DNA from: a virus
Virus record (IMG/VR): IMGVR_UViG_3300035191_000049
Direction: 5' to 3' (one strand)
Length of the DNA: 18,800 nucleotides
Shown in pieces: positions 397 through 18,800 of this stretch. The notes beneath the pieces were generated by a model. It worked only from the letters and a program-made list of their open reading frames with translations, did no database searches and was not told where the DNA came from. Within the stretch, counting starts at the first letter, position 1, and each line of letters opens with the position of its first letter. A program made the position numbers and the translations under genes.

Positions 397-397
397 A

Positions 398-474: not shown

Positions 475-538
475 TGTTTGGGGATGATTATTGAGTGCCG
501 TCCCCGAACACTTTTTCCACAAGCTGCCAACCCATGGG

Positions 539-1036: not shown

Positions 1037-1037
1037 A

Positions 1038-1127: not shown

Positions 1128-1132
1128 AACAG

Positions 1133-1217: not shown

Positions 1218-1381
1218 AGGCGCCCCTCCAATGAGCGCTCAGAGGAGGGACTTTCGCCACCGTTACCAGCGACAGGACAGGAACATGCTGCCCAAGGCCC
1301 ACGGCTTGCCGTGGGGGATGAAGCTAGGGGCCGAAATTCGGTCCCCTGCACCCGGTTGCCGAAGCTTCCGGGGGGATAGGG

Positions 1382-1463
1382 CGGAGGGTGTACGAGTCGA
1401 ACGCGCCCCGTCAAGGGTCATCGGTGTTCAAAACCGCGCCGGCACCACTGCCGCTCACCCTCC
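1382..1463 (-). tRNA. tRNA-Ser (anticodon TGA), type II
   Basis: Acceptor GGAGGGT/ACCCTCC pairs 7/7. D-arm CGG-CAGTGGTG-CCG. Anticodon stem CGGT/ACCG with loop TTTGAAC. Variable arm of 15 nt. T-arm GCGCG-TTCGACT-CGTAC. Confidence 0.65.
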
Positions 1464-1466
1464 ATG

Positions 1467-1538
1467 CGGTACCGACGGGAGTCGAACCCGCTTTCTCCTG
1501 GTCGACAGCCAGGTGTCCTACCGTTGGACCTCGGTACC
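1467..1538 (-). tRNA. tRNA-Asp (anticodon GTC)
   Basis: Acceptor GGTACCG/CGGTACC pairs 7/7. D-arm GTCC-AACGGTA-GGAC. Anticodon stem CCTGG/CCAGG with loop CTGTCGA. T-arm with loop TTCGACT. Confidence 0.75.
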
Positions 1539-1963
1539 TAGTGAACATAGCCTTTTCCAACCGGCTCGACCACCGACTGAAAAAGCTTTTCGATCGCGAC
1601 GTCGAGGTTGACGCCGTCTTTGGGACGAGCCATCGCCTTGGGTGAGTCGATTCGGATCGCACAGGTGTAGAGCTTCGCGAGCTGCATCCAGAAGACTGCC
1701 TCCCATGGAGGAACATCCTCGTCCAGATAGGGGACACGATGCCCCGCTGCGTAGGTCCGAATCTGACCCGAGACGATGCTGATGAAGGCGTGGTTTGGAA
1801 CCACTCCGAACGGAATCGACTCTTCCGTCCTGAGGACGCGAATCGCCCAGCGCTCTTCGTCACGGTCAAAGATGACGACACCGACGGGTGCCGCCGCGTT
1901 GTGCTCCGGCCTGTACATCTGACGAATGATGACGTAGCCGAAGTCCAGGTCTTCCAAAGCCAT
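1538..1963 (-). CDS. hypothetical protein (141 aa) embedded in the tRNA array
   Basis: ORF-track ORF 1538..2101, trimmed to the internal Met (MALEDLDFGYVIIRQMYRPEH...) because tRNA-Phe occupies 1975-2049. The composition looks protein-like. I recognised no family. Confidence 0.45.
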   Translation of the reverse strand: MALEDLDFGYVIIRQMYRPEHNAAAPVGVVIFDRDEERWAIRVLRTEESIPFGVVPNHAFISIVSGQIRTYAAGHRVPYLDEDVPPWEAVFWMQLAKLYTCAIRIDSPKAMARPKDGVNLDVAIEKLFQSVVEPVGKGYVH

Positions 1964-1974
1964 GTCATTCCCCC

Positions 1975-2049
1975 TGGTGGGCCAGATCGGAATCGAACCG
2001 ATATCTGCCGCATTTTCAGTGCGGGCTCTTACCAATTGAGTACTGACCC
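1975..2049 (-). tRNA. tRNA-Phe (anticodon GAA), CCA encoded
   Basis: Acceptor GGGTCAG/CTGGCCC with one G-U pair, followed by ACCA. D-arm CTCA-ATTGGTA-AGAG. Anticodon stem CCGCA/TGCGG with loop CTGAAAA, matching the canonical Phe loop. T-arm ATCGG-TTCGATT-CCGAT. Confidence 0.8.
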
Positions 2050-2138
2050 AAAAGAGTGGTGAATCACCTTGCTTCCTTCCGGACCTGGGGCAACTCACCA
2101 CCCCACAAAAAGGGGGTCAGCATGGCTGGCGACCATAC

Positions 2139-2213
2139 TGGCACCGGCAACAGGACTTGAACCTGTATTCACGGCTTCAAAGGCCGTTGTCCTACCGATT
2201 GGACGATACCGGT
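2139..2213 (-). tRNA. tRNA-Gln (anticodon TTG), CCA encoded
   Basis: Acceptor ACCGGTA/TGCCGGT with one U-G pair, followed by GCCA. U8 is present. D-arm GTCC-AATCGGTA-GGAC. Anticodon stem ACGGC/GCCGT with loop CTTTGAA. T-arm ACAGG-TTCAAGT-CCTGT, perfect. Confidence 0.8.
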
Positions 2214-2467
2214 ATTCCACCCCAGCTCACTCTCCCGATCGACGCCGTTTGGACCACCTGCTCCTCCAGACGCAAGATGGCCACCAAGCGCCTGAATTCA
2301 ACGCAGGTCGGGGCGGTACCTTCCCCGAATCTCACACGACTGGTGTGCGTCTTGTGTCGAGCGGCAACTGCTCCGTATCCTCGGTGAGCCGATCGGGCGT
2401 TTCCCAGAGACGACTGCAGTCGTTGATCTCAATCGACCTACTCCAGGTTGCCGAAACGGAGCTGAGG

Positions 2468-2543
2468 TGGCTGGGGTGGAGAGGCTCGAACTCCCGACAA
2501 CCTGGGCCAGAACCAGGTGCTCTTCCAACTGAGCTACACCCCA
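2468..2543 (-). tRNA. tRNA-Gln (anticodon CTG), CCA encoded
   Basis: Acceptor TGGGGTG/CACCCCA pairs 7/7, followed by GCCA. U8 is present. D-arm GCTC-AGTTGGAA-GAGC. Anticodon stem CCTGG/CCAGG with loop TTCTGGC. T-arm with loop TTCGAGC. Confidence 0.8.
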
Positions 2544-2550
2544 AGGGTAG

Positions 2551-2624
2551 CGGGCCAGGAGGGAATTGAACCCCCATCTCCAGGTTAACAGCCTGGCGCT
2601 AAAACCAGTATCAGCTACTGACCC
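2551..2624 (-). tRNA. tRNA-Asn (anticodon GTT)
   Basis: Acceptor GGGTCAG/CTGGCCC, the same acceptor as tRNA-Phe. U8 is present. D stem GCTG/TAGC. Anticodon stem CCAGG/CCTGG with loop CTGTTAA, matching the canonical Asn loop. T-arm with loop TTCAATT. Confidence 0.75.
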
Positions 2625-2629
2625 ACGAT

Positions 2630-2655
2630 CCGGCGCCCCAGCAAGGGGGCGCCGG
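2630..2655. other. perfect 10-bp GC hairpin (CCGGCGCCCC-AGCAAG-GGGGCGCCGG) between tRNA-Asn and tRNA-Lys
   Basis: Read directly from the sequence. No flanking U-run on either strand, so it is not a classical intrinsic terminator. It may be a processing or structural element within the tRNA transcript. Confidence 0.5.
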
Positions 2656-2721
2656 TAATTGATGCCTGATTGTCAAAGATCAACGTGGCCGTCACCACTG
2701 GACCGACGTTGTCCAATTTAG

Positions 2722-2796
2722 CCGGGGCGAGAGGATTCGAACCTCCGACCAAGTGATTAAGAGTCACCCACTCTAGCCAGACTGAGTTACGCCCCG
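2722..2796 (-). tRNA. tRNA-Lys (anticodon CTT)
   Basis: Acceptor CGGGGCG/CGCCCCG pairs 7/7. U8 is present. D-arm ACTC-AGTCTGGCTA-GAGT. Anticodon stem with a G-U closing pair and loop CTCTTAA. T-arm AGAGG-TTCGAAT-CCTCC. Confidence 0.75.
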
Positions 2797-2809
2797 AAAA
2801 CGTTATTTT

Positions 2810-2881
2810 GTGGGTCCACTGAGATTCGAACTCAGACCGCCTGATTAAAAGTCAGGAGCGCTACCCTTACGCTCATGGACC
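2810..2881 (-). tRNA. tRNA-Lys (anticodon TTT)
   Basis: Acceptor GGGTCCA/TGGACCC pairs 7/7. Anticodon stem CCTGA/TCAGG with loop CTTTTAA, matching the canonical Lys loop. T-arm CTGAG-TTCGAAT-CTCAG, perfect. The D region (GCG...CGC) is less clean. Confidence 0.75.
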
Positions 2882-2904
2882 CTGCTTTCTCCTCCAAAAA
2901 CGTC

Positions 2905-2959: not shown

Positions 2960-3112
2960 CTACCCCGGGGGACCCTCCTGAAGCGCGACGTTGGTATCAA
3001 TGGCAAATGGCGTACAGGAGGGCCGTTCCAAGCATGACGGGTGATTCAACGACCACCCGCTACGCTTGAGCAGCTCCCTTGTTGTCAGATAGCTTTTGCC
3101 GCCTTTTTCCAT
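2960..3112 (-). CDS. small ORF (50 aa, MEKGGKSYLTTRELLKRSGWSLNHPS...), possible HTH-like regulator, or else the body of an sRNA
   Basis: It lies entirely between the predicted promoter (3165-3192) and the terminator (2905-2939). An AGGA motif precedes the ATG but with only 2 nt of spacing. The LTTRELLKRSGWS segment resembles a helix-turn-helix turn. It is below the 60-aa cutoff of the ORF track. Confidence 0.3.
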   Translation of the reverse strand: MEKGGKSYLTTRELLKRSGWSLNHPSCLERPSCTPFAIDTNVALQEGPPG

Positions 3113-3163
3113 GATCCTGGTTTCTGTTTCGATACTCTCCGGGCCTTTCTCTAGCCCATGTAA

Positions 3164-3175
3164 AGTAGCATATGC
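3164..3175. promoter_or_regulatory. perfect 12-bp palindrome TAGCATATGCTA (copy 1), operator-like
   Basis: The identical 12-mer recurs at 16451-16462, also inside a minus-strand promoter. A chance recurrence of a 12-mer within 18.8 kb is very unlikely. Confidence 0.55.
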
Positions 3176-3192
3176 TATCCACAGAGCGTGTC
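3165..3192 (-). promoter_or_regulatory. sigma70-like promoter on the minus strand: -35 TTGACA (3187-3192), 16-nt spacer, -10 TATGCT (3165-3170)
   Basis: The hexamers were read from the reverse complement. The -10 lies inside the palindrome TAGCATATGCTA (3164-3175). The predicted TSS is near 3157 and would drive the 50-aa ORF/sRNA unit, with possible read-through into the tRNA array. Confidence 0.45.
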
Positions 3193-3225
3193 AACAAGAA
3201 AATGCTTGACAGCCCAAACTTTTTC

Positions 3226-3615
3226 CTATGCGGCCGTTTTCTTTGAGGGTTTTTTCTGACTGTTCAGCAGCTCAACAGTCGCAACGTACTCTCTCTCGAA
3301 GTCCTCAGGACTAAGAACCCAAGCGATCTCCATATCATGCAAGAGATACCCCCCCTCGGGGACATCATGAGCAGCGCAGCCGTCACCCTCTGGGACACCC
3401 AGGAGTCTTAAAGGGATATCCATCTTAAAGGCGCGCACCGACTCTCCCGTTTTCCTGGAGACGTACCAGGACCAGGGCAGCTCTTCAAAAACCATCGGCT
3501 CCTGCCGATAGTTGCGATTTTCCAGCGGAACCGACTCAGGCTCCGTGTACTCTCGACGCCCGTCGTAGACAGTCAAGCCGAAGAGCCTTCTGAATGACAT
3601 TCCAAGCTCGTACAT
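3226..3615 (-). CDS. hypothetical protein (129 aa)
   Basis: ORF-track ORF. Its start lies 1 nt after the stop of the methyltransferase gene. No motif recognised. Confidence 0.5.
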   Translation of the reverse strand: MYELGMSFRRLFGLTVYDGRREYTEPESVPLENRNYRQEPMVFEELPWSWYVSRKTGESVRAFKMDIPLRLLGVPEGDGCAAHDVPEGGYLLHDMEIAWVLSPEDFEREYVATVELLNSQKKPSKKTAA

Positions 3616-3616
3616 A

Positions 3617-4309
3617 TCAGAACCCCGTTTCCATTGCCTCTCGACTCTGCTTCCTAAATCTCACAACAAACTGCAATCCGGCTTTATCGATTGGCTGCCT
3701 GGTGTACGCTTTCAGGTATGTCGAGCATACAAATTCAACTGCCAAGCCAAGCTTCCTTGCCAGCGACACGAAAAACCCCGCGGGGAACCTTGCCCCGTTG
3801 AGTTCCCCGTCTCTCCAGGGATGCATTCCACTGGTTGTGTGCTCACCGTTCAACGACTCGTTGTAAGTAGAGAAGTAAACTCCATTTTCAGCCATACGAC
3901 CAAACACAGCGCCCAGGCATGCTTCAACCTGAGAGGGCGTCATATGCGTCATGACCGAGTGAGACCAGGCGAAGTCAAACCGAATCCCCTCGGGCAACAA
4001 AGAAAGATCAAAATCCGTCGACTGAAAAAGAGTAGCTTTCTTATCAACCAGGCCCTGAAGGACGATCTCTTCGCGAGCTGCAGACAGGACGTGTTCGTTG
4101 TGATCAAGGCCAAAATAGTGTCCAGGCTCCAAGTAGTCGATGAAAAAACGTCCAGCCCGCAGTGCCCCACAGCCCACCTCAAGCATGTAGTGGGAAGGAA
4201 CAAGACCATGAGCTTTGGCAAATTCAAATAGAAGCTCTCCATCCTCCCAGGTTTCACAGCCGTGGATTTCTTTTGTACGCCACCACTTATCGCTCGTCGG
4301 CTTAGTCAT
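3617..4309 (-). CDS. class I SAM-dependent methyltransferase
   Basis: Rossmann motif I YMLEVGCGALRAG followed by an acidic residue. A GAGGGG Shine-Dalgarno site lies about 9 nt upstream. This segment has lower GC (about 50%) than the rest of the window. Confidence 0.65.
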   Translation of the reverse strand: MTKPTSDKWWRTKEIHGCETWEDGELLFEFAKAHGLVPSHYMLEVGCGALRAGRFFIDYLEPGHYFGLDHNEHVLSAAREEIVLQGLVDKKATLFQSTDFDLSLLPEGIRFDFAWSHSVMTHMTPSQVEACLGAVFGRMAENGVYFSTYNESLNGEHTTSGMHPWRDGELNGARFPAGFFVSLARKLGLAVEFVCSTYLKAYTRQPIDKAGLQFVVRFRKQSREAMETGF

Positions 4310-4381: not shown

Positions 4382-4618
4382 TCACCGCGAGGATAGACCC
4401 CAATCGTCCCTCACCCCCTCCACCTCTGCCCCGGTACATACCACCCTCGCCACAAAGACCATCACCATCCAGGTAAAAATGATCACTGCTAGCCACAGTA
4501 AAAATCCCAGAGTAGCGCTCCGGACCAACTCCAAAGCACCCTCCTTCTTTCTCTGTTGCATGATGCTCGTGTTTAGCACGTTCATCCTGCAGAAGTCATG
4601 TTCGCTGCGTTTAGCCAA
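4382..4618 (-). CDS. small membrane protein (one TM helix, LGFLLWLAVIIFTWMVMVFVA)
   Basis: ORF-track ORF with a hydrophobic core. The true start may be the internal Met at 4585. Confidence 0.35.
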   Translation of the reverse strand: MAKRSEHDFCRMNVLNTSIMQQRKKEGALELVRSATLGFLLWLAVIIFTWMVMVFVARVVCTGAEVEGVRDDWGLSSR

Positions 4619-5312
4619 CTCTCAGCTTTGCCACACCCCAAGCGTGGTCGTAAATGTGCATCCCCTTGCAACTCCAGATGATTTCACCGGCCGTGACGGT
4701 AACGTCATCAGTACTGATGCACTCGGCCATATACTCCTGCATGAGCCTCACAGCGGCGATATTCGCCGGGAAGCCGTTCCAGAGGTCATTCGACCTGATG
4801 TAGACGAAGAAGTGCAACTCGGGCTCTTCTCCCTCTCGGAGCCCTGATGGGGAGAAAATTCTGGTGTCAATTTGTCGCAGACAGGGCGGGTCATCCAGCG
4901 TTATGTCTTCAGGACGGGCGACAGCAATGCACTCCTGGTTGGAGCCGAAACCGTTTCTGCGGTAGCGGTTGATGATGGCCTCCATCTGGGGAGCCACTCG
5001 CTCGCCATAGGTGTACAGCTCATTTTCCTTGAGAGGCTGGTCTGTCATTAAATAGGGAAGGTACTCCTCTATATATTCCATGGTCGTTGGAGGAGGCACG
5101 TGTGAGAGGTGCTGAGGCATCTCAGGAACGAGGGGGCGCACGCCTGGGTGGGTGACCCGTATCTCCACCCAGTCAAGCTCCCAGCGCTTCTGGCCCTCAT
5201 AGGAACCATGATCAACGACCCACTGTCGCCCATGGGTAAGAACTGCATCGACGGTTTGAAACCAGGCATCGGGCAGGTCCCTGGCTTTGATGTGAATTGG
5301 CTTCAAGGACAT
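4611..5312 (-). CDS. thymidylate synthase-fold enzyme (ThyA/dUMP hydroxymethylase family), divergent
   Basis: Aligns by eye to ThyA core motifs: YTYGERV (compare pVYGkQWR), DDPPCL (catalytic Cys of LAPCH), FVYIRSNDLWNGFPANIAA (compare QLYQRSCDVFLGLPFNIAS, Asn retained), and IIWSCKGMHIYDHAW (compare fVWTGGDTHLYSNH). The ATG at 5312 overlaps the upstream stop as TGATG. Confidence 0.75.
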   Translation of the reverse strand: MSLKPIHIKARDLPDAWFQTVDAVLTHGRQWVVDHGSYEGQKRWELDWVEIRVTHPGVRPLVPEMPQHLSHVPPPTTMEYIEEYLPYLMTDQPLKENELYTYGERVAPQMEAIINRYRRNGFGSNQECIAVARPEDITLDDPPCLRQIDTRIFSPSGLREGEEPELHFFVYIRSNDLWNGFPANIAAVRLMQEYMAECISTDDVTVTAGEIIWSCKGMHIYDHAWGVAKLRVG

Positions 5313-5533
5313 CAACTTTTCTCCTGGGGTCCTACCCCAGCGAGTGGCATCACGTCGATGTACAACCCACGCCAGCCACCTTCAAGCATTTGTCGAACAA
5401 AATAAACGTCCTGAGGATTACCTATCCATACAAAAACCTTCTTGCCGCCGTAAGCCACTCGGACGTCCTTTATCCCATGCACCTTGGTGAGGTGCCCATA
5501 CACAGCTTCAACGATCCCGTCGAAGCGCCTCAT
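5312..5533 (-). CDS. hypothetical protein (73 aa)
   Basis: ORF-track ORF. It is coupled by ATGA and TGATG overlaps to both neighbouring genes. Confidence 0.45.
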   Translation of the reverse strand: MRRFDGIVEAVYGHLTKVHGIKDVRVAYGGKKVFVWIGNPQDVYFVRQMLEGGWRGLYIDVMPLAGVGPQEKS

Positions 5534-6171
5534 GCTTCAGAAACAATGTTTCCTTCGCTGAGCTTCATCACCAGATCGTACTCCGACAGGTCGTCAGGAG
5601 ACGCAATCGCCACTCCATCGCCAACTCGGACGATCGGTATCCACGAAGCACAGCAACCACAGACGATCCGGAGCTGGTCACGGTCGTCACCCTCGAAGTT
5701 GTCGTCCTTTAGACGGGCGAACGTAATGTTTCCAGAGAATCTCGGGTTGTCGTCGTTTCCACCCATTGCGTCGCCACAGACAGGACATGGGCTGTCGAGA
5801 ATGCCGTTTTTAATGAGGTCCGCGATCATCTCCCAGGCCCGACGATCCACGACTAGGTTTGTCGCGAAGAGTGTGTGAGAGTGGAGCCTGTGAGCCTCCT
5901 CGATGGTCATTACATCTGTGGAGAGCGGGGCAAGCTTTGCGAGCTGTTTATGCAACCAACAATGCTGCCCCAGCGCAAGGTCCAACTCACCAACCAAGCG
6001 ATAGGACATGCTTCTTTCACTGAGCTTTTGAAAACAATCAGCGCAGAAACCGATAGGCCTCTCATGATCCGCATAGACGACAGTGACTCTCTCCCAAGGA
6101 GGCTCTTTTTCGCAATCTCGCTGCAAACCACACCCAAGGCAACGCTCCAATATTCGGACAACTTTCGGCAT
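5530..6171 (-). CDS. Cys-rich (Zn-ribbon-like) hypothetical protein
   Basis: Multiple CxxC pairs (CLGCG, CADC, CPVCGD, CGCC). A strong AGGAGG Shine-Dalgarno site precedes it. Confidence 0.55.
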   Translation of the reverse strand: MPKVVRILERCLGCGLQRDCEKEPPWERVTVVYADHERPIGFCADCFQKLSERSMSYRLVGELDLALGQHCWLHKQLAKLAPLSTDVMTIEEAHRLHSHTLFATNLVVDRRAWEMIADLIKNGILDSPCPVCGDAMGGNDDNPRFSGNITFARLKDDNFEGDDRDQLRIVCGCCASWIPIVRVGDGVAIASPDDLSEYDLVMKLSEGNIVSEA

Positions 6172-6681
6172 CTAATCCTCCTGCTCGATCACCTGAGGAG
6201 CAGGAGGAAGAAGAGCCGTCGCGCTGTTGTTCAGGATCTCCGGGAGTCGAGGACCGATGGCCTCGGCGACGGTACGTCCATCGCTACCGACGAGCCATGG
6301 CAGGAAGAGCTGCTCGGGCGTGATGATGCCGTTCTCGATGGCCTCGAAGGCGCCCTTGAGAAAAATGCTCAGCACGCGGTGCTCTCGCCATCCTCGGGAC
6401 GCCTTGAGACGCTTGAACTTGTCCGGGAGCAAGGTCCCGTGCCGCCTGTGCTTGGCCTCCTCCTTGAGCTTTTCGTCATCAGGTAGGGCGACGTTCATGC
6501 GCGCGTGGTAGCTGACACCTTCATGCTGCCAGACGAACTCCAGCATAACCCTGTAGTTCTCGAAATTTTCCGACCACCGAATCCCGGTTACGCCCCACAA
6601 ACGGAGCAGGTCGGTGATTTCCTCCCTGGACTCACCTGGCGGGACTACCGTGTTCTCGGCATACTTCCTCTTCTTGGGCAT
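6172..6681 (-). CDS. hypothetical protein (169 aa), basic N-terminus
   Basis: ORF-track ORF with a GGAG Shine-Dalgarno site 6 nt upstream. It overlaps the 3' end of the radical SAM gene by about 50 nt. Confidence 0.5.
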   Translation of the reverse strand: MPKKRKYAENTVVPPGESREEITDLLRLWGVTGIRWSENFENYRVMLEFVWQHEGVSYHARMNVALPDDEKLKEEAKHRRHGTLLPDKFKRLKASRGWREHRVLSIFLKGAFEAIENGIITPEQLFLPWLVGSDGRTVAEAIGPRLPEILNNSATALLPPAPQVIEQED

Positions 6682-7420
6682 CTTTCTCTCCGATTGCTTT
6701 GAGATGAAGGGGGCTCAGGTTCGAGTTGAGCCCACAACGGTTGCACTTCATGGTTTTGAGATTGCGCTCAATGGTCAGGACGTCATCGTGGACAGTCCCG
6801 ATTGAGTGGCAGGTGTCGGCCTCGCCAGTAACGATGGTGCCGTCGACGTTGACAGCCGGGCTGCAATGTTTCCCCATCTGCTCGATCGCCCTGATGCCAC
6901 CAGCAAGGCCACCAGTGCTCCTCGTCGCGCTTCTCAGATTGAAGCACGTAGGACTGATACGGGTGGGCTTGATACGATTCTCTTTCGTCCTGCGACAGGG
7001 AAAAATAACGCGGAGGTTCGACTCGAAGCTGACTCCAGGGATACGTCGAAACTTTTCCCTGGCGAGGATCTTCGGATAGTAGCGCGGATCGTTCGTCACC
7101 TGGATGGGCAGCTCCAACTCGCGAGCGAGCTTCACTTTCTCCGGATCATCGATCCATGAGCCGTTCGTTGTGATGAGCGTGGCCTGGTGATAGACGTGAA
7201 ACTTGTCGAGTCGCCTCAAATGGCCTGCCATCTCTTCGAGCTTCGGATGCTCGAAGGGCTCTCCTCCGGTGAGTAGAATGACCTTGGCGGCGACACTCTG
7301 AGCAAAATCGACAGCGGCCTTAAACGTCTCCATAGTCATGTGCTCGCCATCTGGACCTGAGGAATCGACCATGCAGTGCTTGCACCCCATGGTGCAGCAA
7401 TTCGTGACACGGATCAGCAT
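6632..7420 (-). CDS. radical SAM enzyme, QueE/NrdG/PflA-like (paralog 1)
   Basis: N-terminal CTMGCKHC (Cx3Cx2C) and LTGGEPFEHP (GGEP SAM-binding motif). C-terminal extra Cys pairs, ending in CNRCGL. A GAGGGGG Shine-Dalgarno site is present. Parallel in sequence to the gene at 10111-10929. Confidence 0.75.
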   Translation of the reverse strand: MLIRVTNCCTMGCKHCMVDSSGPDGEHMTMETFKAAVDFAQSVAAKVILLTGGEPFEHPKLEEMAGHLRRLDKFHVYHQATLITTNGSWIDDPEKVKLARELELPIQVTNDPRYYPKILAREKFRRIPGVSFESNLRVIFPCRRTKENRIKPTRISPTCFNLRSATRSTGGLAGGIRAIEQMGKHCSPAVNVDGTIVTGEADTCHSIGTVHDDVLTIERNLKTMKCNRCGLNSNLSPLHLKAIGEKDAQEEEVCREHGSPAR

Positions 7421-8715
7421 TGCTCGACCCCCTCAGTAGGCTCCTCTTCTTCAGGAGGTAGTAGCGCTTTCCAGCGGTCTTCCTTGAATCGATGATCGGT
7501 GGCGTAAGGGATGTAACGCACCAGGCCTGCATCGATAAGCCTTTGAAGAATGCCGTTCATGTACTTTACGGCCTCGTTGTGATCGTCGGGCAGTGAGCCT
7601 ATCCGGTTGAGGATCGAGTAGATGTCGTAGTCGCGCCACATGCGCTTTCCGCCCAAATCCCTGAGCATGAGGCCGTGCAACTCTTTCATGAGGGGGGTAA
7701 GCGGCTGCTGTTCGAAGGTGGCGTCCCTGTGAATAAAGGTTGGGTACTGACAGTTGTTGATTTCGACGCAGACCGGGCACTCGTCTGCTGCCTCCCGGAT
7801 ATCCTCATCCGTCATCGATATCATCCTGTGACTGTCACGTGCCGCGAACAGGAGCTGGTTGAGCGTCCAGGGAAGGAGCTTTCCTTCTTCGTCTTTGTTC
7901 GTGAGGAGCAGCTCGCCGATCGTCTTGGCGAGAGCCTCCTTTTTGCCTGGCTCCTTCTCCTCGGGACCCCCCACCTCGATGTCCATTTCTTCCAATCCGT
8001 TGTCTGCCACGCAGTAGACGTGGTCAGAGGTGTTTCCGAGACGGCTCTTGACGACTACTTCAACAGACATAAGAGCCTCAAGCTGCTGCTCGACGAGTTC
8101 GATATCGATCTCTGGGTGTACCTCTTTGAGCCCGTGCTCGATCTCCTCCGCGGACCAAACCGCGCTCATGCCGTCCTTCTTGGTCCCTGCCTTGACCATG
8201 AGCTTGACGATGTTGACGGCAATCGGAGGCCACGTAGCCTCCGGAATATTGACGGACAGCTCTGGCTCGTTTTCGCCGTCATTAGACGAGTGGCAGCAAT
8301 TCTCATCCTCACCGATCGCGGCCACATCATTATCCGGCTCGGGCTTCTGTTCAGGTTTCTGGAACGGCCGCATGTGCATGTCGGGCTGCTCGAACTTCTT
8401 GTCTTCGTTAACGATTGCGTCGCGAAGATCGCAGGTCAGGCGAAATGCTTCTTCAGCGACCCATGTCGCCTCCTCCCCCATTTCTTCGTTCTTTGTCATC
8501 TGGACGTTCAGCGACCAGCCCGAGATGAGCTTGGCGACCATCATGAGGATGCGAGAATTCTCTTCGACGCGAGCCACCTCTTTCGCAGCGTTGACGATGT
8601 CCGAGACACTGCCCTCGGTAGAACGAAGATACTTCTTTCGCACCCTTCCAAGCTCCTCAGCGGCCTCCTTCATCTCTGCGATCAAGTTTCTGATTTTGGG
8701 TTCGTCGGACATCAT
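7414..8715 (-). CDS. hypothetical acidic protein (433 aa)
   Basis: ORF-track ORF with balanced composition. The antisense plus-strand ORF 7675..8901 is Leu/Arg-rich and was judged spurious. A GGGGTGA Shine-Dalgarno site is present. Confidence 0.55.
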   Translation of the reverse strand: MMSDEPKIRNLIAEMKEAAEELGRVRKKYLRSTEGSVSDIVNAAKEVARVEENSRILMMVAKLISGWSLNVQMTKNEEMGEEATWVAEEAFRLTCDLRDAIVNEDKKFEQPDMHMRPFQKPEQKPEPDNDVAAIGEDENCCHSSNDGENEPELSVNIPEATWPPIAVNIVKLMVKAGTKKDGMSAVWSAEEIEHGLKEVHPEIDIELVEQQLEALMSVEVVVKSRLGNTSDHVYCVADNGLEEMDIEVGGPEEKEPGKKEALAKTIGELLLTNKDEEGKLLPWTLNQLLFAARDSHRMISMTDEDIREAADECPVCVEINNCQYPTFIHRDATFEQQPLTPLMKELHGLMLRDLGGKRMWRDYDIYSILNRIGSLPDDHNEAVKYMNGILQRLIDAGLVRYIPYATDHRFKEDRWKALLPPEEEEPTEGVEQC

Positions 8716-9137
8716 TCACCCCGCTTGAGAGAAAAACCTTTCAGGACACCCACGTCATCGCCAGCGGCCTCACAGGTGACCTCTGTGACCTGGATCGAGC
8801 CGAGCAGCCATCGTCCTGGCATCCGAATCATGTGCCTCAGCGCGTCCAGCTTCTTGTTGAGAAATTCCTTCAGTGATCCGCCGACATCCTCCTGGGAGTA
8901 GCGAGCCACCTCTTCTTTATCTTGCCACCAGCCGGGGTCAGGCTCGTGGCCAGGGAGCTGCCAAACGTTCTCGTCTGGACGGAAGGCCAGACTGAAGAAA
9001 GCGTCGGGGTACATTTCCAACAGCTTGTGCGTTGGAGGTCCCCACTCTTTGTCGTCCTCAGGATGTTCTTCTTTGTAGACCTCAAGAAGAGGACGAATCT
9101 TTCCGCCTCGCCGAATACGCAAAAAGCCTGGCATCAT
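8712..9137 (-). CDS. hypothetical protein (141 aa)
   Basis: ORF 8712..9266 trimmed to the internal MMPGF start (9137). A GAGGA Shine-Dalgarno site lies 5 nt upstream. This avoids a 94-nt overlap with the upstream gene. Confidence 0.5.
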   Translation of the reverse strand: MMPGFLRIRRGGKIRPLLEVYKEEHPEDDKEWGPPTHKLLEMYPDAFFSLAFRPDENVWQLPGHEPDPGWWQDKEEVARYSQEDVGGSLKEFLNKKLDALRHMIRMPGRWLLGSIQVTEVTCEAAGDDVGVLKGFSLKRGE

Positions 9138-9171
9138 GTATTCCTCGGGAATCACAGCAACGACGAGAGCG

Positions 9172-9717
9172 TCACCCACTTGCGCCTCCCTGTGCCCACC
9201 GTTCGAAGTCGACCTCTCGCATGTGACCGCTCTTCTTAAAGATGGGAAAAAGACCCATGGGTCCATCGGGCGGAAACATCTCGGCGTCCTTGCCCATGAC
9301 GGGCTCGAAGTTGCAGCCCTGAAGGATCAGGGCCACAAACTCAGAACAGGAGACCTTGTTGTGATTGATGATGGGGTTGAACCACTCGACTCCCGTCACC
9401 TTGTAGAGCGCAAGGAGGATGCCGTTCAGGATGACGGCCTTGAAATCGTATTTCTTGTTAACGTAGTTACGCGCCTTTCGCATCCCCTCCTCGATATCCA
9501 GTCCGACGACCTCGAAGCACATCCAGTCGTCGTAGTTTTTTTTGAGAAGCTCGACTCGCTGGGGAATGACGCCGTCGGAAATAGCATGGGTGACCCACTG
9601 GCCTCCCCACACCGGATCCGTGTAACCCACCCAGGCGTGGTTCCAGTTACCTCCCGTCGCCTTGCGAATGAGCCAACCGAGAAAGTTGTTCGACCTGCTG
9701 AATCCAACGACAATCAT
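9172..9717 (-). CDS. permuted papain-fold enzyme (LRAT-like / NlpC-P60 superfamily), thiol hydrolase or acyltransferase
   Basis: A His-containing segment (NWNHAWVGY) lies N-terminal to a Cys box (SCSEFV, compare LRAT NCEHF). That is the permuted order. The start at 9717 forms an ATGA overlap with the SLOG gene's stop. Confidence 0.5.
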   Translation of the reverse strand: MIVVGFSRSNNFLGWLIRKATGGNWNHAWVGYTDPVWGGQWVTHAISDGVIPQRVELLKKNYDDWMCFEVVGLDIEEGMRKARNYVNKKYDFKAVILNGILLALYKVTGVEWFNPIINHNKVSCSEFVALILQGCNFEPVMGKDAEMFPPDGPMGLFPIFKKSGHMREVDFERWAQGGASG

Positions 9718-10190
9718 CTCAGCCTCTTGAAGATTTCCATGCACCGGAACTTTGCTGTCTCCTGAGCACCTGGAAATCCACTCTCACGGGGGCCGGCGAC
9801 GTTGATGACCTCAAAGTTGGTTAGCAGCGAGGCAAGGTGGTCGTAGCCATCGCTCTCGTTGGGAAACATGTGCAGCTCGTTGATGATGTCGAACCAGGGC
9901 TTTTCCAGTTTGCGGCACAAGCGCACCGTGAGAGCTGTTCCCGTCGAATCAGGGATGCTGGGACAGAGGATGAGAGTCGCGTCCGAGTCCCGGACGTTCC
10001 ACTCCGTGCGCTGAGGATAGTTCGACGTCGGCGCCTCCTGGAGCCTGCGGTATTTCTGGGGGATCTTGCCGTCCTCAGCTCGACGTCCCAGGGGACACCA
10101 GCCCCCTATCTCAATGCCCAGCTTCAGCGCCGCATCGAGACCACCTCGATCGACCCCTGTCTGACCGCCTGATATGACTTTTTTCAACAT
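9714..10190 (-). CDS. SLOG-superfamily protein ('putative molybdenum-carrier'/YpsA-like)
   Basis: The N-terminus ISGGQTGVDRGGLDAALKLGIEIGGWCPLGRRAEDG matches the signature start of the MoCo-carrier-like SLOG family. Downstream TEWNVRDSDATLIL follows. Confidence 0.6.
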   Translation of the reverse strand: MLKKVISGGQTGVDRGGLDAALKLGIEIGGWCPLGRRAEDGKIPQKYRRLQEAPTSNYPQRTEWNVRDSDATLILCPSIPDSTGTALTVRLCRKLEKPWFDIINELHMFPNESDGYDHLASLLTNFEVINVAGPRESGFPGAQETAKFRCMEIFKRLR

Positions 10191-10929
10191 CCTTCAACCC
10201 GCACTTTCCGCAGGGGAGTATTGTTCGTATTCTCTCCATCGCCGCCCTTGACGCCGATTTCCAGTCGGCGCGCAGCTCATCGATCGTCGTCACCTTCATG
10301 CAGCAATCAAGCGGCCCCATTCGGACCTCTCCCCCGGGATGCACGTGAATGCTGCACGTTCCGTCCAACGCTTCCCACATGCGAACGAACGACCGGAAGT
10401 TTGCATCGCCTGCTCCGCGCTTCAATAGTCTGTTCGCGTGCACGCAGTAGCGATTCTTTTCTCTGATTTTCGTTCCAGGAGGAGGTTTCCAGCCGCGCCT
10501 TTTCGCCTTCTCTCCGACGTATATTGAACTTAGATAGCTGATAACCTTCACGTTCTTCAACGCTCGCAGCTCATCAACGAAGTCGAGCTGCGGATAGAAC
10601 CGAAAGTCAGCGGTCACCTGGAATGCGACAGGCGCCAAGGACTTGATCTCTGCGAGGCGCCCTCTGAGCAGGGCGCCACTCGTCCCGACCCTCACGATAA
10701 AACCATGCTCCAGCGCAGCGTCACGAAGGGTCTTCACGACTTCCCAAAAAAGCGGATGTTCGAGCGGCTCGCCACCAGCTATGCCCAGGTCGTTCGAGCC
10801 GATCTTTTTGAAGACGCGAAGCGTTTCTTCGAGCGTCTCCTTGCTCATGTGCTCGGCACCGGGACCGGTCTTCGACACCAGGCAGTGATCACAATCGAGG
10901 GAGCACCGATATGTGAGCATGATGACCAT
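10111..10929 (-). CDS. radical SAM enzyme, QueE/NrdG/PflA-like (paralog 2)
   Basis: CSLDCDHC (Cx3Cx2C) and IAGGEPLEHP. C-terminal Cys pairs, ending in CGKCGL. Same architecture as the gene at 6632-7420. Confidence 0.75.
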   Translation of the reverse strand: MVIMLTYRCSLDCDHCLVSKTGPGAEHMSKETLEETLRVFKKIGSNDLGIAGGEPLEHPLFWEVVKTLRDAALEHGFIVRVGTSGALLRGRLAEIKSLAPVAFQVTADFRFYPQLDFVDELRALKNVKVISYLSSIYVGEKAKRRGWKPPPGTKIREKNRYCVHANRLLKRGAGDANFRSFVRMWEALDGTCSIHVHPGGEVRMGPLDCCMKVTTIDELRADWKSASRAAMERIRTILPCGKCGLKDVEKSHIRRSDRGRSRWSRCGAEAGH

Positions 10930-11681: not shown

Positions 11682-12100
11682 CAATCCAACCCTGCCACCT
11701 GACACGACAGCTCGTCGAGCTGCTTCTGCATGTCATCGACGCGATCCTCCAGCTCCGTCACCCTCGCCGCCAAGCTTTTGGCGAAGCGCTCGGTGTGCTT
11801 CACGCAGAGAGCGGTAAACTTCCCGCCGTCAACGATTATGCTGTTCTCATCGACGAATCCTGGCTGCACCCCCTCGACTTCCTGATTGAACACAGACGTC
11901 GCGAAGTTCCAGCAGCCGTCGACATCGCAGGTACACGGGATTGCCTCTACGCCGCGCATGTTCTTGAGCTTGTGACGATCGCGATACTGCTTGCGCGCCT
12001 CAGCTTTCTCGTAACGTCCGGCTGGGAAAAATAGATTGGACATCCCCTTCTTCCACACTCGCCAGTAGATGTGCGGCTGTCCGTTTTTATCAACACCCAT
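11681..12100 (-). CDS. hypothetical protein with C-terminal coiled-coil
   Basis: ORF 11681..12256 trimmed to the internal Met (MGVDKNGQPHIYW...). The N-terminal extension is Ser/Thr-rich, low-complexity, and overlaps the upstream gene. Confidence 0.45.
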   Translation of the reverse strand: MGVDKNGQPHIYWRVWKKGMSNLFFPAGRYEKAEARKQYRDRHKLKNMRGVEAIPCTCDVDGCWNFATSVFNQEVEGVQPGFVDENSIIVDGGKFTALCVKHTERFAKSLAARVTELEDRVDDMQKQLDELSCQVAGLD

Positions 12101-12488
12101 TTCTCTTCTCCCGGTCCAGGTAGTAACCCATGGGGTGACCATGAACCTCCTTAAAACGCTCTTTCGAGATTTCGTGACGCCGCATGAGGCACTCGTCGCA
12201 GATGGGCTCGTACTTGTAGAGCATGTCCCCGTCGTCAGCCCAGTCGATGTAACCATGCCACAGCACCCACGAGCGCTCTGCGGCCGTCGCGCGACAGAGG
12301 GCGCACTGCATACCGACCATACCCTTCAGGCCATGTAGCTTTCTGACGTCGCCACAGCCCCTACAGGTCATGAGTCTGGGGTTGACCCACTTCTTCTCGT
12401 GAATGCACTTCTCGCAGCCCTCGACCATGCACTCGAAGCAACCCCCGACCTCGACGTTCTCAGCGCCACATGCTCTACACTTCGGCAT
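12090..12488 (-). CDS. Cys-rich Zn-finger protein (132 aa)
   Basis: Five CxxC pairs (CRACG, CFEC, CEKC, CRGCG, CDEC). Confidence 0.5.
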   Translation of the reverse strand: MPKCRACGAENVEVGGCFECMVEGCEKCIHEKKWVNPRLMTCRGCGDVRKLHGLKGMVGMQCALCRATAAERSWVLWHGYIDWADDGDMLYKYEPICDECLMRRHEISKERFKEVHGHPMGYYLDREKRNGC

Positions 12489-13532
12489 CTATAGACGCCT
12501 CATCTCGAACTGGAGCGAACGGATCTTTTGGAGCAGCCCATCAACGCCCTGGAATATTTTCCTAACGCGATCCCTTGTCGTCTTTGGCCAGTTGTCCTTG
12601 TCATCGATACTGCCGAGCACTTTATTGGCCTCAAATTCCAGCTCGTCAACGGCTTGGACGGCATCAAACACATCGAACATTTTTTTCTTCTCGGGCACGA
12701 CGGACATGACGACCACATCTTTGGGAATGCTGTAGATCGGGCCACGAAGGATGTAGGCAACCTTCATCCTCAGGACGTTCCCAGTGTATCCCTGGTCAGG
12801 AGGACCAAAGTAGGTCTCGTCAGCCGTTACACCGGCACCTGTCGTCCCTGGGTTCCACTCCTTCAGAACGAGAATGTCGCCCTTCTCGAAGTCACGATCG
12901 TTCTTGCGAACGTCGAAGGTCTTCTCACCCGACTTCATTGCGCGGAATTCGGCTGGCCACGTCTTCAACTCGTGCTCGACGGGCTCACGCTTTTCATGTC
13001 GGCGCCTGAACATCTCCAGCGTCTTGTCAGGAGCACCTACTAAAACATTTCGATCGCCCACTGGATAGACACGTTCTGGATCCGCGCCCATCAGCTCCAC
13101 CGTCTCCTCGACGGAGATTGAGTCGGGCACTGGATCGCTAAACGGAGGCGACGCAGGATAGTCACCGCCGAGCCGCTCCATGAAGCCTACATCCAGCGGG
13201 GCGTCATCACCTTCTTCTTCATGCTTCAAGAGAGCGTCGATCTCTTCCTTCTGTCGCTGCTTCTCGGCCTCGTAGTCGCGGTCCCACTGGGCCAGTTGCT
13301 CTTTCGTGGCAGGCATGTGCTCGCCAGGCTTTCGACAAGCCTCTGGGTCATCGACAAGATGCGGCTCTTGACACCAACCGGAATTCTTTTCTCGCTCGAC
13401 TAGCCCCTTAAAAACAGGGCATTCAGACGTTTCCTTGGTCACTTCTATCGATTCATATTTGCAGCCGTGGACGGGGCAGCAGTGTGTAATGTGGACCCCC
13501 CAGCCCTCCGGTAGTTCTTCTTCGGACATCAT
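12489..13532 (-). CDS. ASCH/DUF3850 (PUA-like) domain protein with Cys/His-rich N-terminus
   Basis: The C-terminal KTWPAEFRAMKSGEKTFDVRKNDRDFEKGDILVLKEW...GYTGNVLRMKVAYI matches the DUF3850/ASCH signature. The N-terminus HCCPVHGC...ECPVFKG is a metal-binding cluster. Confidence 0.6.
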   Translation of the reverse strand: MMSEEELPEGWGVHITHCCPVHGCKYESIEVTKETSECPVFKGLVEREKNSGWCQEPHLVDDPEACRKPGEHMPATKEQLAQWDRDYEAEKQRQKEEIDALLKHEEEGDDAPLDVGFMERLGGDYPASPPFSDPVPDSISVEETVELMGADPERVYPVGDRNVLVGAPDKTLEMFRRRHEKREPVEHELKTWPAEFRAMKSGEKTFDVRKNDRDFEKGDILVLKEWNPGTTGAGVTADETYFGPPDQGYTGNVLRMKVAYILRGPIYSIPKDVVVMSVVPEKKKMFDVFDAVQAVDELEFEANKVLGSIDDKDNWPKTTRDRVRKIFQGVDGLLQKIRSLQFEMRRL

Positions 13533-14137
13533 TCTTCTCCGGGTAAAAAATCCTCTTTTCTGAAGATGGACCAGAGCTGCAGCCCGTTCTCACGGAGCAG
13601 CTCCTCTCCGCCTTCCTGACGGTCGACGACGGCGAGGACGCCCACGACGTTGAGATTCTCCTCGCGAAGCGTCTCGACCGCCTTGAGCGACGAGCCACCG
13701 GACGTGACGACGTCCTCGATGGCAAGGACGCGGCAATCGTTCGAGACCATCCGCTCTCCGTCGAGATCGTAGAGACCCTCGACAGACTGCTTGCGCCCGT
13801 GGCCCTTCTTGTCCAGACGAGGTATGAGCCATGGGATCTTCTTCGCGAAGGGTCCGCCGACGCCCATCAGTCGCGCAACGAGCAGGAGACCTCCCAGCGG
13901 CACAGGAGCGAGCGCCCAGTTCACCCCCGACGGTGTGACGCAGTCCAGGCCGAAGTGGAGAGCGCCCCCGAGGTGCTCACCCACCGAGGGGTGGCAGGCA
14001 GCCAGACGGCAGTCGACGTAGAACTTACTTTTTCGCCCCGAGGCGAGCGTCAGCTCCCTCTCCGTCGAGACCGCGTTGTTCAGCATCGCGTCCTTCAGAC
14101 GCCTCCAAACACGGATCTTCATGATCTCTTCGCGCAT
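13529..14137 (-). CDS. type I phosphoribosyltransferase, orotate-PRTase (PyrE) family
   Basis: LASGRKSKFYVDCR (compare PyrE LKSGRKSPYFF). The PRPP motif VLAIEDVVTSGGS. VVDRQEGG (compare PyrE LDRQERG). The start is ambiguous between 14086, 14137 and 14164. Confidence 0.7.
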   Translation of the reverse strand: MREEIMKIRVWRRLKDAMLNNAVSTERELTLASGRKSKFYVDCRLAACHPSVGEHLGGALHFGLDCVTPSGVNWALAPVPLGGLLLVARLMGVGGPFAKKIPWLIPRLDKKGHGRKQSVEGLYDLDGERMVSNDCRVLAIEDVVTSGGSSLKAVETLREENLNVVGVLAVVDRQEGGEELLRENGLQLWSIFRKEDFLPGEE

Positions 14138-14453
14138 CGACTCCGGGGTCTCCATCGTGCTCATATCTCTCCTCGTCTAGCATCGCGTCGAGCATCTCGG
14201 CCTCGGCGTCCACCGCCTTGCGAGAGCTGCTGTCCGCGAGCTTCTTCCTGATCCCCCTGGCAATCGTCGCCGGGTTGCCGCCCATGTTGAAATGAAACCC
14301 ACTCGCACCCCATGAGACGTAAAGGCGCAGGCCGGGGATGAGACGGATCGAGGTCCCGATCCGTGGGTTCAGCATTCTTGCTGCCGCCTTGGTCGTCTTG
14401 GAGACAATTTTTTTATTGAGTGGCTTACTAGCTAGGGACTTCTGGGATGGCAT
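14025..14453 (-). CDS. possible hypothetical protein overlapping the PRTase 5' end
   Basis: The N-terminal 80 aa have a protein-like frame. The C-terminus is charged and low-complexity. It overlaps the PRTase start by at least 60 nt. The call is uncertain. Confidence 0.2.
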   Translation of the reverse strand: MPSQKSLASKPLNKKIVSKTTKAAARMLNPRIGTSIRLIPGLRLYVSWGASGFHFNMGGNPATIARGIRKKLADSSSRKAVDAEAEMLDAMLDEERYEHDGDPGVDARRDHEDPCLEASEGRDAEQRGLDGEGADARLGAKK

Positions 14454-17047: not shown

Positions 17048-17665
17048 TCAGATTGTTCCGGCGCCGCGGGTAAAGTCGGGGATAACCTCCTCGTCGAGGC
17101 AGACCCAAAGATGCAGCACGTAGGGATGAACGTTTACGTAATTTTCTTTCTTTGGAAGCACTTGGAGGGCGGTTCTATCGCCCAGGAAAAGCTCTTTGAC
17201 GTCCCGAAGCTCTTCCCAGGTGGGAAGACGATCCTGGAACGACGTCGACAGGTGCATCCAGCGCCGGCCGTCCTCCTCGCGATCGCCGGAGAGGATGACT
17301 CGCTGCCCCCTGACGGACTGATACCGGGCGCCGTTGAGGTTCGTATCGAGCACCTGCCAGTGGGGAGGAAGGATCTTGGGTAGGTATTCGCTGACCCAGT
17401 CTGCGACCTCGGCATCAAGTACCAACTCGACCTCGCCCTTCGAGAACTTCGCAATGAATTCCAGCTTCTTGCGGACCTCGTCCCACTTATCCATGAGCGC
17501 GAGATTGAAGGCTTCCTCCAGACTGGCGAACACCCAAGAGAATTGCCGCTCGTCGCAGCCCGAAAGCCCCTCACGGGTAAAACCGTAGCTGTCCAGCATC
17601 CGCTTCAGCTTGTCCTTGAGAGCCGCGGGGGTAAGCGGCTTGCGCTTGCGCTTTTTATTGCCCAT
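17048..17665 (-). CDS. hypothetical protein (205 aa) with basic KKRKRK N-terminus
   Basis: ORF-track ORF. Its start overlaps the stop of the kinase gene by 1 nt. Confidence 0.5.
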   Translation of the reverse strand: MGNKKRKRKPLTPAALKDKLKRMLDSYGFTREGLSGCDERQFSWVFASLEEAFNLALMDKWDEVRKKLEFIAKFSKGEVELVLDAEVADWVSEYLPKILPPHWQVLDTNLNGARYQSVRGQRVILSGDREEDGRRWMHLSTSFQDRLPTWEELRDVKELFLGDRTALQVLPKKENYVNVHPYVLHLWVCLDEEVIPDFTRGAGTI

Positions 17666-18372
17666 CAGAAGGATCTAAGGTTGTCTTCGATGGCGGCGAC
17701 GCACGCCTCAAACACCTCATCCTCAGGATGGTTTGCATCTATGTGAACAAAGTGCTTGCCAGGCGCGACATAGGACGAGCCGCCCATCTTCGGAAGCCGG
17801 CGATAGAACTCGGCGAGCCGTACTTGAAGCTCGTCCAGCTCGTAGATTTCTTTCATCTTATGACGGCACTCGCGCCGATTCGCTGCCTCGTCACAATCAA
17901 CGTTGAGAACCAGGACCAGGTCGGGTTCGATGGCATAACTGTGGAGCTTCATCAGCCACTTGAGAAATGACTCCTTATCGACGTGGTCAGAGGTCAACGA
18001 CTGGTAGGCCAATGTCGAATACATGTAGCGATCGCACAACACCCACTTCCCTTTGGCCAGAGCAGGCTCGATGACGTGAGCGATATGGTCCATTCGATCG
18101 GCCACAAACAAAAGGGCCATCGTCTCAGCCGGTGGCTTCCAGCCACCCTGACCATCACAAGGAATGATCCCTCTCAGAATCTTACGAATAAGCTTTCCGC
18201 ATGGTCGCTCCGTCGGCTGATGTTCTGAAGCAACTCCCGGATATTTTCCACTTTCGACAGATACCTGCATGTAGCCGTATAACCGTTGAGCGACTGTTGT
18301 GGTTCCGGATCCGTCAATCCCTTCGAGGACTATGAACTTACCCCTTTTCATCGACCCAATCCTTGCTGTCAT
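17665..18372 (-). CDS. thymidylate kinase-like (d)NMP kinase
   Basis: P-loop KFIVLEGIDGSGTTT. The Tmk DRY motif in LCDRYMYSTLAYQ. The start may be the Met at 18351. Confidence 0.7.
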   Translation of the reverse strand: MTARIGSMKRGKFIVLEGIDGSGTTTVAQRLYGYMQVSVESGKYPGVASEHQPTERPCGKLIRKILRGIIPCDGQGGWKPPAETMALLFVADRMDHIAHVIEPALAKGKWVLCDRYMYSTLAYQSLTSDHVDKESFLKWLMKLHSYAIEPDLVLVLNVDCDEAANRRECRHKMKEIYELDELQVRLAEFYRRLPKMGGSSYVAPGKHFVHIDANHPEDEVFEACVAAIEDNLRSF

Positions 18373-18800
18373 GAAAAGCTATTGGCTTTTCGAGCCGTTT
18401 CTTTATGAGGTCGGTGTCACCTTTCTCGATGGCGAACCACTGGCGCTCCTCGGATTCACAGACAGCAGGCATCGTTCCGCTACCAGCCATGGGATCGAGG
18501 ACCCTGTCACCAGGATTCGTCGCCAGAAGAAGACACCGGCGAATGAGCTTTGTACTGAGCTGGGGTCCGCTCCAGCCCTCGGCCTTGTACTTGGGATGCC
18601 GCACCGTTGGGACATCGGTCCAGATATCGGAGACCGTGACGCCCTCCTTCATCTTACCTCGGTGACCGCCGTAGTCTCGAAGATCCTTCTTGCAGTGGCG
18701 GCACACCTCGATAGGCATCCGCACCTTGTTGAGCACGCGCGGCTTGCCCTTCGAGAAGTGGATGATGCCGTAGTGCGCGCGATAGAGACCCTTAGCGCGG
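18338..18800 (-). CDS. DNA methyltransferase, N6-adenine/N4-cytosine family (C-terminal part, 5'-truncated by the window edge)
   Basis: VLDPMAGSGT, the motif I of the N6_N4 family, lies at the C-terminus, which is the beta-class arrangement. The reading frame stays open to position 18800 (...AHYGIIHFSKGKPRVLNKVRMPIEV). Confidence 0.65.
   Translation of the reverse strand, partial: RAKGLYRAHYGIIHFSKGKPRVLNKVRMPIEVCRHCKKDLRDYGGHRGKMKEGVTVSDIWTDVPTVRHPKYKAEGWSGPQLSTKLIRRCLLLATNPGDRVLDPMAGSGTMPAVCESEERQWFAIEKGDTDLIKKRLEKPIAFHDSKDWVDEKG

Follow-up and report, generated by a model that had tools for sequence, protein, structure and literature searches.

A rare phage protein that joins a conserved, widespread Cys/His module to a DUF3850 domain

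The question raised by positions 12489 to 13532 of the viral record IMGVR_UViG_3300035191_000049, analyzed here as one stretch of 18,800 nucleotides (nt; "the window"), is what the protein encoded there does for its phage. The initial annotation had described this protein as an ASCH/DUF3850 domain fused to a Cys/His metal-binding N-terminus and had read its place in the surrounding gene cluster as fitting a reader or processor of modified nucleotides. Our analysis shows instead two normally independent small phage domains fused in one protein, each of which is usually a separate phage protein of ~90–100 amino acids (aa). One is an autonomous, widespread phage domain which, as far as domain libraries and a literature search show, belongs to an undescribed family; the other is DUF3850, an assignment that is ordinary in itself. 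The gene is real and consists of a single open reading frame (ORF) of 347 codons plus a TAG stop on the minus strand, beginning with ATGATG and preceded 8 nt upstream by a GGAG Shine-Dalgarno sequence. Because its start codon shares the sequence ATGA with the stop codon of the gene upstream, and its TAG stop runs straight into the next gene's ATG (TAGATG), it lies in a tightly packed same-strand operon and is translationally coupled to both neighbors.

The same protein was found, identical, on two metagenome contigs (P0001), where it is called from the second Met, and one of these contigs (L011) matches 15.5 kb of the window at 99.99% identity; no near-identical DNA occurred among 50,697 phage records. 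A word-indexed search of 5.8 billion proteins returned a sole full-length relative, P0002, which is 86% identical and 283 aa long. Full-length relatives were absent from an IMG/VR search, and the same quest in Joint Genome Institute (JGI) metagenomes yielded only one distant DUF3850 locus. The fusion is rare, being confined in the databases searched to two protein clusters, those of the window protein and P0002.

The motif quoted in the initial annotation, HCCPVHGC...ECPVF, corresponds to residues 17-24 and 37-41 and forms part of a module of ~55 aa with the pattern HxxHCCxxHGCKY, followed after 2-11 residues by CPV and after another 10-25 residues by a terminal Cys pair. Residues 14-66 of the target protein fit this pattern, with a GWCQEP...C variant of the terminal pair in which S51 sits where the usual CxxC has its first Cys and C66 appears to substitute; the candidate metal ligands are H14, H17, C18, C19, H22, C24, C38, C54, and C66. 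A profile built from five module copies (A1) and scored against 1.84 billion cluster representatives at a cut-off of E 1e-3 matched 116 representatives, every one of them with CC..HGC, and a second profile search extended the family to at least 354 protein clusters, nearly all of phage origin. Among 241 copies, the upstream His residues were kept at -4 in 240 and at -1 in 236, K+7 in 233, and Y/F+8 in 240, while C-[PQLS]-[VIL] followed after 4-11 residues in 240 (almost always as CPV) and the terminal Cys pair was present in 237 (CxxC in 215, WCQEP...C in 18, Cx(2-9)C in 4). Because all 116 profile matches carry the core motif and conservation across the 241 copies is near-absolute, the N-terminal motif is not a product of chance. 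The metal-binding N-terminus first proposed for this protein thus stands as a conserved unit which, judged from its sequence, probably does bind metal.

No Pfam family matched the module above threshold, and Pfam searches with all 116 module proteins gave no consistent family, the weak matches to Zn_ribbon_8 and Zn_ribbon_9 being limited to at most 5 of the 116. Although AlphaFold models the module with confidence, the PDB contains no relative of it in sequence or fold. The top 120 module proteins of the second search were 46-112 aa long, and the clusters of that search were annotated as "hypothetical" or left unnamed, none with a Pfam domain. Within the module, CPV...CxxC (the second half) resembles paired zinc knuckles, a likeness to zinc ribbons and treble-clef fingers that does not extend to the first half (HxxHCCxxHGCKY), which has no counterpart in them.

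The module is usually a protein of its own, with a median length of 102 aa for the module proteins at 78 surveyed IMG/VR loci (the basis of all counts out of 78 below), and it is portable where it is fused. It is N-terminal in the target protein and C-terminal in P0020, P0022, L104, and L105, and it occurs in two or three tandem copies in P0003, P0024-26, P0028, P0037, P0052, and P0120. Just the N-terminal ~80 residues of the target protein are shared by P0003, which has two tandem copies and lacks DUF3850, and by P0004, where the segment is C-terminal. All identifiable fusion partners fall within the "GWCQEP" subfamily, to which the target module belongs: nucleoside-diphosphate kinase (NDK) in P0020 (PF00334, 1e-38), NUDIX in P0022 (1e-10), a DEDD 3'-5' exonuclease with the module at its C-terminus in two IMG/VR proteins of ~280 aa (L104, 5336-6193; L105, 7338-8171), and DUF3850 in the window protein and P0002. 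The exonuclease matches PDB 7T2S at 5e-9 and retains the ExoI-III motifs. Additionally, a NUDIX gene in L006 overlaps at its start with a stand-alone module gene (P0008). The family spans jumbo phages, cyanophage S-CRM01, and Gordonia phages, and in isolated phages the module genes lie in replication regions: gene g150 of S-CRM01 is located between a gp62-like clamp loader and two methyltransferases, and S140_184 of Shewanella phage 1/40 is just downstream of DNA polymerase I.

The module is acidic, with a net charge of -5 in the target protein and a mean of -4 across 242 copies (92% negative), which argues against binding to a nucleic-acid backbone. This acidity, and the behavior of the module as a portable tag on different enzymes, speak against the earlier suggestion of a Zn-dependent nucleic-acid-binding N-terminus. 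The reading that we favor, tentatively and short of an even chance, is that a zinc-stabilized acidic docking tag and a spacer carry a nucleotide- or nucleic-acid-binding DUF3850 cargo. The module would bind two zinc ions, with eight of its nine invariant Cys/His residues as predicted ligands, and because it is acidic it would serve as a protein-docking tag rather than as a nucleic-acid binder. The spacer would consist of a rigid charged helix and a flexible acidic linker of ~70 aa and would hold the cargo at a site common to the other cargo enzymes. That site would most plausibly be the phage replication and deoxynucleoside triphosphate (dNTP) supply machinery, since NDK, MutT-like NUDIX, and proofreading-type exonuclease all act there, and the DUF3850 cargo would bind nucleic acid or nucleotide via a conserved polar pocket. 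A bolder version, which we consider unlikely, makes the module a new two-metal fold and a universal phage tag recruiting NDK, MutT-like NUDIX, and 3'-5' exonuclease to one hub, where DUF3850 would work as well, for example in sensing or removing non-canonical nucleotides. If the docking tag is real, the identity of the dock would give a location and a probable process for several orphan phage proteins; if it is not, the clean definition of a new domain remains.

Several observations weigh against the docking tag and its cargo as we picture them. Only four partner types could be identified, and the rest match nothing (P0003, P0004, P0017-19, P0021, P0023, and P0027 gave no Pfam, PHROG, or PDB match where tested). 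Homologues of NUDIX, NDK, DUF3850, and radical S-adenosylmethionine (radical-SAM) genes were found near the module at none of the 78 viral loci; because the wider family carries no such genes there, the link to nucleotide enzymes is limited to one subfamily and may reflect the shared ancestry of a few phages. Moreover, the acidity of the whole protein (net charge -21, isoelectric point 4.9) is unusual for a nucleic-acid binder, and the full-length AlphaFold model is unreliable in the DUF3850 region, where the predicted local distance difference test (pLDDT) score is <50 and the alignment is shallow. The nine conserved Cys/His residues, finally, could equally hold an iron-sulfur (Fe-S) center.

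That last point leads to a further explanation, in which the module is a redox or Fe-S center partnering the nearby radical-SAM enzymes rather than a structural zinc tag. It is small, acidic, and Cys-rich, as rubredoxins and ferredoxins are, and three of five lineages have radical-SAM genes of one family next to their GWCQEP-type module genes (two genes in the window, one each in L001 and L007); in L022, a more distantly related radical-SAM gene is 1 kb away from the module. However, such a gene is missing from all 78 broader module loci, fusion to NDK, NUDIX, or exonuclease would be senseless for an electron carrier, and a pattern of three His and six Cys is more typical of zinc, so that we regard this explanation as very improbable. 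Radical-SAM or NUDIX as a general companion of the module was likewise rejected and holds only within the GWCQEP subfamily. The L001 radical-SAM gene (3004-3774) lies directly downstream of P0003, and the L007 gene (6020-6739) encodes a protein 47% identical to the window copy.

The cargo end of the fusion was identified by three matches: Pfam PF12961 (DUF3850) over residues 187-277 and model positions 2-76/77 (E=1.1e-21, 77.2 bits against a cut-off of 22.9), PHROG 986 (E=8e-26), and the solved DUF3850 protein PDB 3IUW over residues 180-229 (E=8.8e-9). The 3IUW protein, from Enterococcus faecalis and deposited as an "activating signal cointegrator," resembles the target domain in its hidden Markov model match, in the RKNDR motif (R209-K-N-D-R213), and in all invariant residues. 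DUF3850 has been placed in the PUA-like superfamily (bioRxiv 10.1101/2025.10.10.680097), and on profile scores we assign the target domain to this family, with ASCH as its closest sister here. The PUA-like call of the initial annotation is therefore upheld, as is the DUF3850 half of its "ASCH/DUF3850" label, and the result that it had named as refuting, a lack of any significant match to ASCH or PUA, did not occur. ASCH proper (PF04266) reached only 16.0 of the required 21.2 bits (E=0.02) and covered residues 197-230 only. The EVE and YTH domains that the annotation had also brought up gave no profile match, as neither these nor SRA were listed in the profile scan even up to E 10. The likeness to EVE/YTH/SRA readers consists of the superfamily and the idea of a base-accommodating pocket; the target domain differs in showing no sign of an aromatic cage and in a genomic context that is not modification-specific, and nothing indicates any specificity for modified bases.

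An alignment of 10 DUF3850 sequences at 31-45% identity contains ten invariant residues, all kept in the target protein (H187, K190, P193, K204, R209, D212, R213, G218, D219, and G251 of Y249-T-G251). A putative pocket, with its residues intact, comprises an ASCH-type octapeptide (G202-x-K204-x-x-D207-x-R209), N-D212-R213, G218-D219, E225, and Y-T-G. With the ASCH/YqfB/EOLA1 N4-acetylcytidine amidohydrolases the domain has in common the PUA-like superfamily, the GxKxxExR octapeptide, and a downstream GD. In hhalign, K204, D207, R209, and G218-D219 fall on K21, T24, R26, and G36-D37 of YqfB (sequence verified as PDB 1TE7), at a probability of only 21%. The catalytic residues of YqfB are Lys21, Thr24, Arg26, and Glu74 (PMC9599836). 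The nucleophile Thr24 corresponds to Asp207 in the target protein and to Glu in most DUF3850 proteins, and Glu74 lies outside the aligned region with no alignable counterpart. A YqfB/EOLA1-type amidohydrolase was rejected, since the Thr nucleophile is an Asp in a domain that also stays below the ASCH gathering score.

A looser form of this idea, that DUF3850 enzymatically converts a free nucleoside or nucleotide in the manner of YqfB and EOLA1 (N4-acetylcytidine deacylation) and contributes to pool sanitation beside NDK/NUDIX-type cargo, strikes us as doubtful. Seven of the ten invariants, spread over ~75 aa, are charged or polar (H, K, K, R, D, R, D) and suggest a pocket or active site; an acidic isoelectric point is shared by many small-molecule enzymes; free nucleotides are the substrates of the sister cargoes NDK and NUDIX; and ASCH enzymes working on free nucleosides are documented in the literature (PMC9599836). 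Against it, in addition to the departures from YqfB given above, fusions of a ParB-CTPase to DUF3850 that are paired with ParA suggest binding to a polymer. These fusions are carried by prophages, and their function was left open in the work describing them (bioRxiv 10.1101/2025.10.10.680097 / PNAS 2025). As in the target protein, DUF3850 is one module of a multi-domain phage protein there, but its partner is a CTP-binding ParB fold paired with ParA, whereas the partner in the target protein is the Cys/His module, without ParA or ParB.

Among small phage proteins that lack an explanation, DUF3850 is one of the more frequent, and the natural fusion provides a handle on it: at least 549 IMG/VR loci were found, of which 80 were retrieved (the basis of counts out of 80). 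It is a stand-alone domain, as the median protein length at these loci is 94 aa, and the Cys/His module was near it in none of the 80. In annotated phages, DUF3850 genes are found amid early and replication genes, near DnaB in BcepSaruman for example.

These surveys bear directly on the proposal that DUF3850 is a reader or processor of a modified base that the window cluster produces (ThyA-like protein, Tmk, SAM-dependent methyltransferase, two radical-SAM enzymes, SLOG protein, and phosphoribosyltransferase, PRTase), with the N-terminus as a nucleic-acid-binding zinc finger. The window is indeed dense in nucleotide-metabolism and modification-type genes, PUA-like domains include such readers, an ASCH-like glycosylase for 5-hydroxymethylcytosine has been reported, and a DUF5131 gene lies near DUF3850 in a distant prophage (L023) and in 3 of the 80 viral loci. 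Yet homologues of the window Tmk, ThyA-like, PRTase, and SLOG genes were present at none of the 80 loci, and a radical-SAM gene at only one (L051), by a distant match. DUF3850 is, furthermore, common in temperate Listeria, Clostridioides, and Streptococcus phages, and the window holds no identified hallmark enzyme of hypermodification. The PRTase gene is an indel of ~580 nt, absent from the closest relative, L003, which has only 43 nt at that place, and a functional pairing of PRTase with DUF3850 was rejected for that reason. With these results, the lack of EVE/YTH matches, and the acidic module, the fit between cluster and modified-nucleotide role that had been proposed is not supported, and we think it improbable that DUF3850 has this role; our analysis corrects the picture of a modified-base reader in a modification cluster. 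Since no neighbor in the window co-varies with DUF3850 across phages, the cluster says little about the target protein.

DUF5131 was considered separately. In a Stagnimonas prophage (L023), a DUF5131 gene at 6162-7154 lies two genes upstream of P0005, the closest outside DUF3850 homologue, and in the IMG/VR locus L086 one at 8495-9565 lies directly downstream of DUF3850. As a constant partner it was rejected at 3 of 80 loci, and the association is a weak lead.

A role in RNA metabolism, with DUF3850 as a PUA-like RNA binder for the maintenance, repair, or protection of tRNA and transfer-messenger RNA (tmRNA), takes its appeal from the ten tRNA genes and the tmRNA that lie downstream on the same strand. 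In Listeria phage LP-101 (L013, 3925-4812), a stand-alone DUF3850 gene is two genes away from an RNA ligase, and in phiCD211 (L015, 3631-4173) one is two genes away from the RNA 2'-phosphotransferase KptA, hinting at a link to RNA repair in some phages. Module genes, too, were found near an RNA ligase (L022) and near a polynucleotide kinase (Gordonia phage Sixama), and PHROG 986 bears the name "RNA-binding protein." That name is a prediction, however; the DUF3850 domain of the target protein is net negative, and of the 80 DUF3850 loci only 2 have an RNA-ligase homologue, for which reason membership in RNA-repair cassettes was rejected as a general rule. An RNA role thus appears to us to have little probability.

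The features of the protein and of the surrounding cluster are compiled in Table 1. A typical DUF3850 protein is a stand-alone domain, whereas the target protein has, besides its Cys/His module, a helix, a linker, a loop insertion, and a C-terminal hairpin. Pfam and PHROG searches with the N-terminal, middle, and C-terminal pieces taken separately returned no match, the full-length AlphaFold model was poor (pLDDT 57.6), and Foldseek against the PDB with that model gave meaningless output. The charged helix is common to P0002 and P0004. The loop insertion is absent in typical DUF3850 members and present in L003, with a comparable one in P0005. Most of the C-terminal extension (~62 aa, from about residue 284) represents an in-frame insertion of ~190 nt relative to L003, whose counterpart ends ...VPETEA (~1515-1535) and is followed immediately by the gene that also comes next in the window. 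At the beginning of the insertion stands GAGAAGAAAAAAATG (an A7 run and, at residue 286, an internal Met), and the inserted stretch may be a captured small ORF or provide an independent internal start.

Table 1. Features of the target protein and of the window. All lie on the minus strand; genes are given in transcription order, with the elements of the target protein after the target gene.
Feature	Position	Strand	Evidence or remark
N6/N4 DNA methylase, C-terminal part	18338-18736	-	PF01555, 6.6e-13; runs off window edge
Thymidylate kinase (Tmk)	17665-18372	-	
DUF7694	17048-17665	-	
DUF5131, 382 aa	14428-15576	-	
PyrE-like PRTase	13529-14164	-	TIGR00336 3e-23, below cut-off; directly upstream of target
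Shine-Dalgarno-like GGAGAAGA	13533..13540	-	Sequence read directly; directly before ATGATG, within 3' end of upstream gene
Target gene	12489-13532	-	
His3Cys6 module, residues 11-72 (WGVHITHCCPVHGCKY...ECPV...GWCQEP...CR)	13317..13502	-	Profile searches; AlphaFold m7b9103b9b2c9, pLDDT 89
Long, highly charged single helix, residues 77-107 (KEQLAQWDRDYEAEKQRQKEEIDALLKHEEE)	13212..13304	-	pLDDT 93-98
Acidic proline-rich linker, residues 108-182	12987..13211	-	Low model confidence, pLDDT <50 at 123-169; net -5
DUF3850 (PUA-like) domain, residues 187-277	12702..12974	-	Pfam, PHROG, and 3IUW matches
Loop insertion of ~21 aa within DUF3850, residues 227-247 (NPGTTGAGVTADETYFGPPDQ)	12792..12854	-	Alignment
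C-terminal two-helix extension (hairpin), residues 283-347	12492..12686	-	AlphaFold model, comparison with L003
Cys-rich protein, 132 aa, many CxxC pairs	12090-12488	-	No family match
Radical SAM	10111-10929	-	
cpYpsA SLOG (circularly permuted YpsA)	9714-10190	-	PF12694, 5e-47
Radical SAM	6632-7420	-	
Archaeal-type ThyA-like	4611-5315	-	TIGR03283 1.5e-17, below cut-off
SAM-dependent methyltransferase	3617-4309	-	After ThyA-like gene, just upstream of tRNA array
tRNA + tmRNA array	322-2882	-	9.6 kb downstream of target, same strand

The window is plausibly a nucleotide-metabolism or modification region of a large phage, and on the reading favored above the five-part target protein belongs to an early region of the nucleotide-metabolism kind. 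Its DUF5131 protein is far longer than the 243-position Pfam model; the family corresponds to phage Gp37/Gp68 and is included in the RadicalSAM.org resource. An alternative gene caller starts the PRTase gene at 14086 (185 aa) and adds a 142-aa ORF at 14025-14453. The Cys-rich protein encoded directly after the target gene is kept at the same position in L003, at 84% identity. The two radical-SAM proteins of the window are short paralogues, 27% identical, with an N-terminal CX3CX2C and weak similarity to MoaA and viperin; the SLOG gene overlaps the 3' end of the first by 80 nt and is called as a 70-aa fragment on L011. The ThyA-like protein could be a pyrimidine hydroxymethylase or methylase. 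DNA methyltransferase genes were also seen near module or DUF3850 genes in L004, L007, L017, L022, and L023.

The RNA array comprises tRNA genes for Pro (two), Ser, Asp, Phe, Gln (two), Asn, and Lys (two), together with a complete tmRNA at 536-900 (Rfam RF00023, 147.5 bits) encoding the tag peptide VNTDNYHEAPLARAA, and points to a large phage with its own translation RNAs. Overlapping these RNA genes on the same strand are the mechanically called ORFs at 427-741 and 1411-2013 as well as the 3' end of the one at 947-1414, all probably spurious.

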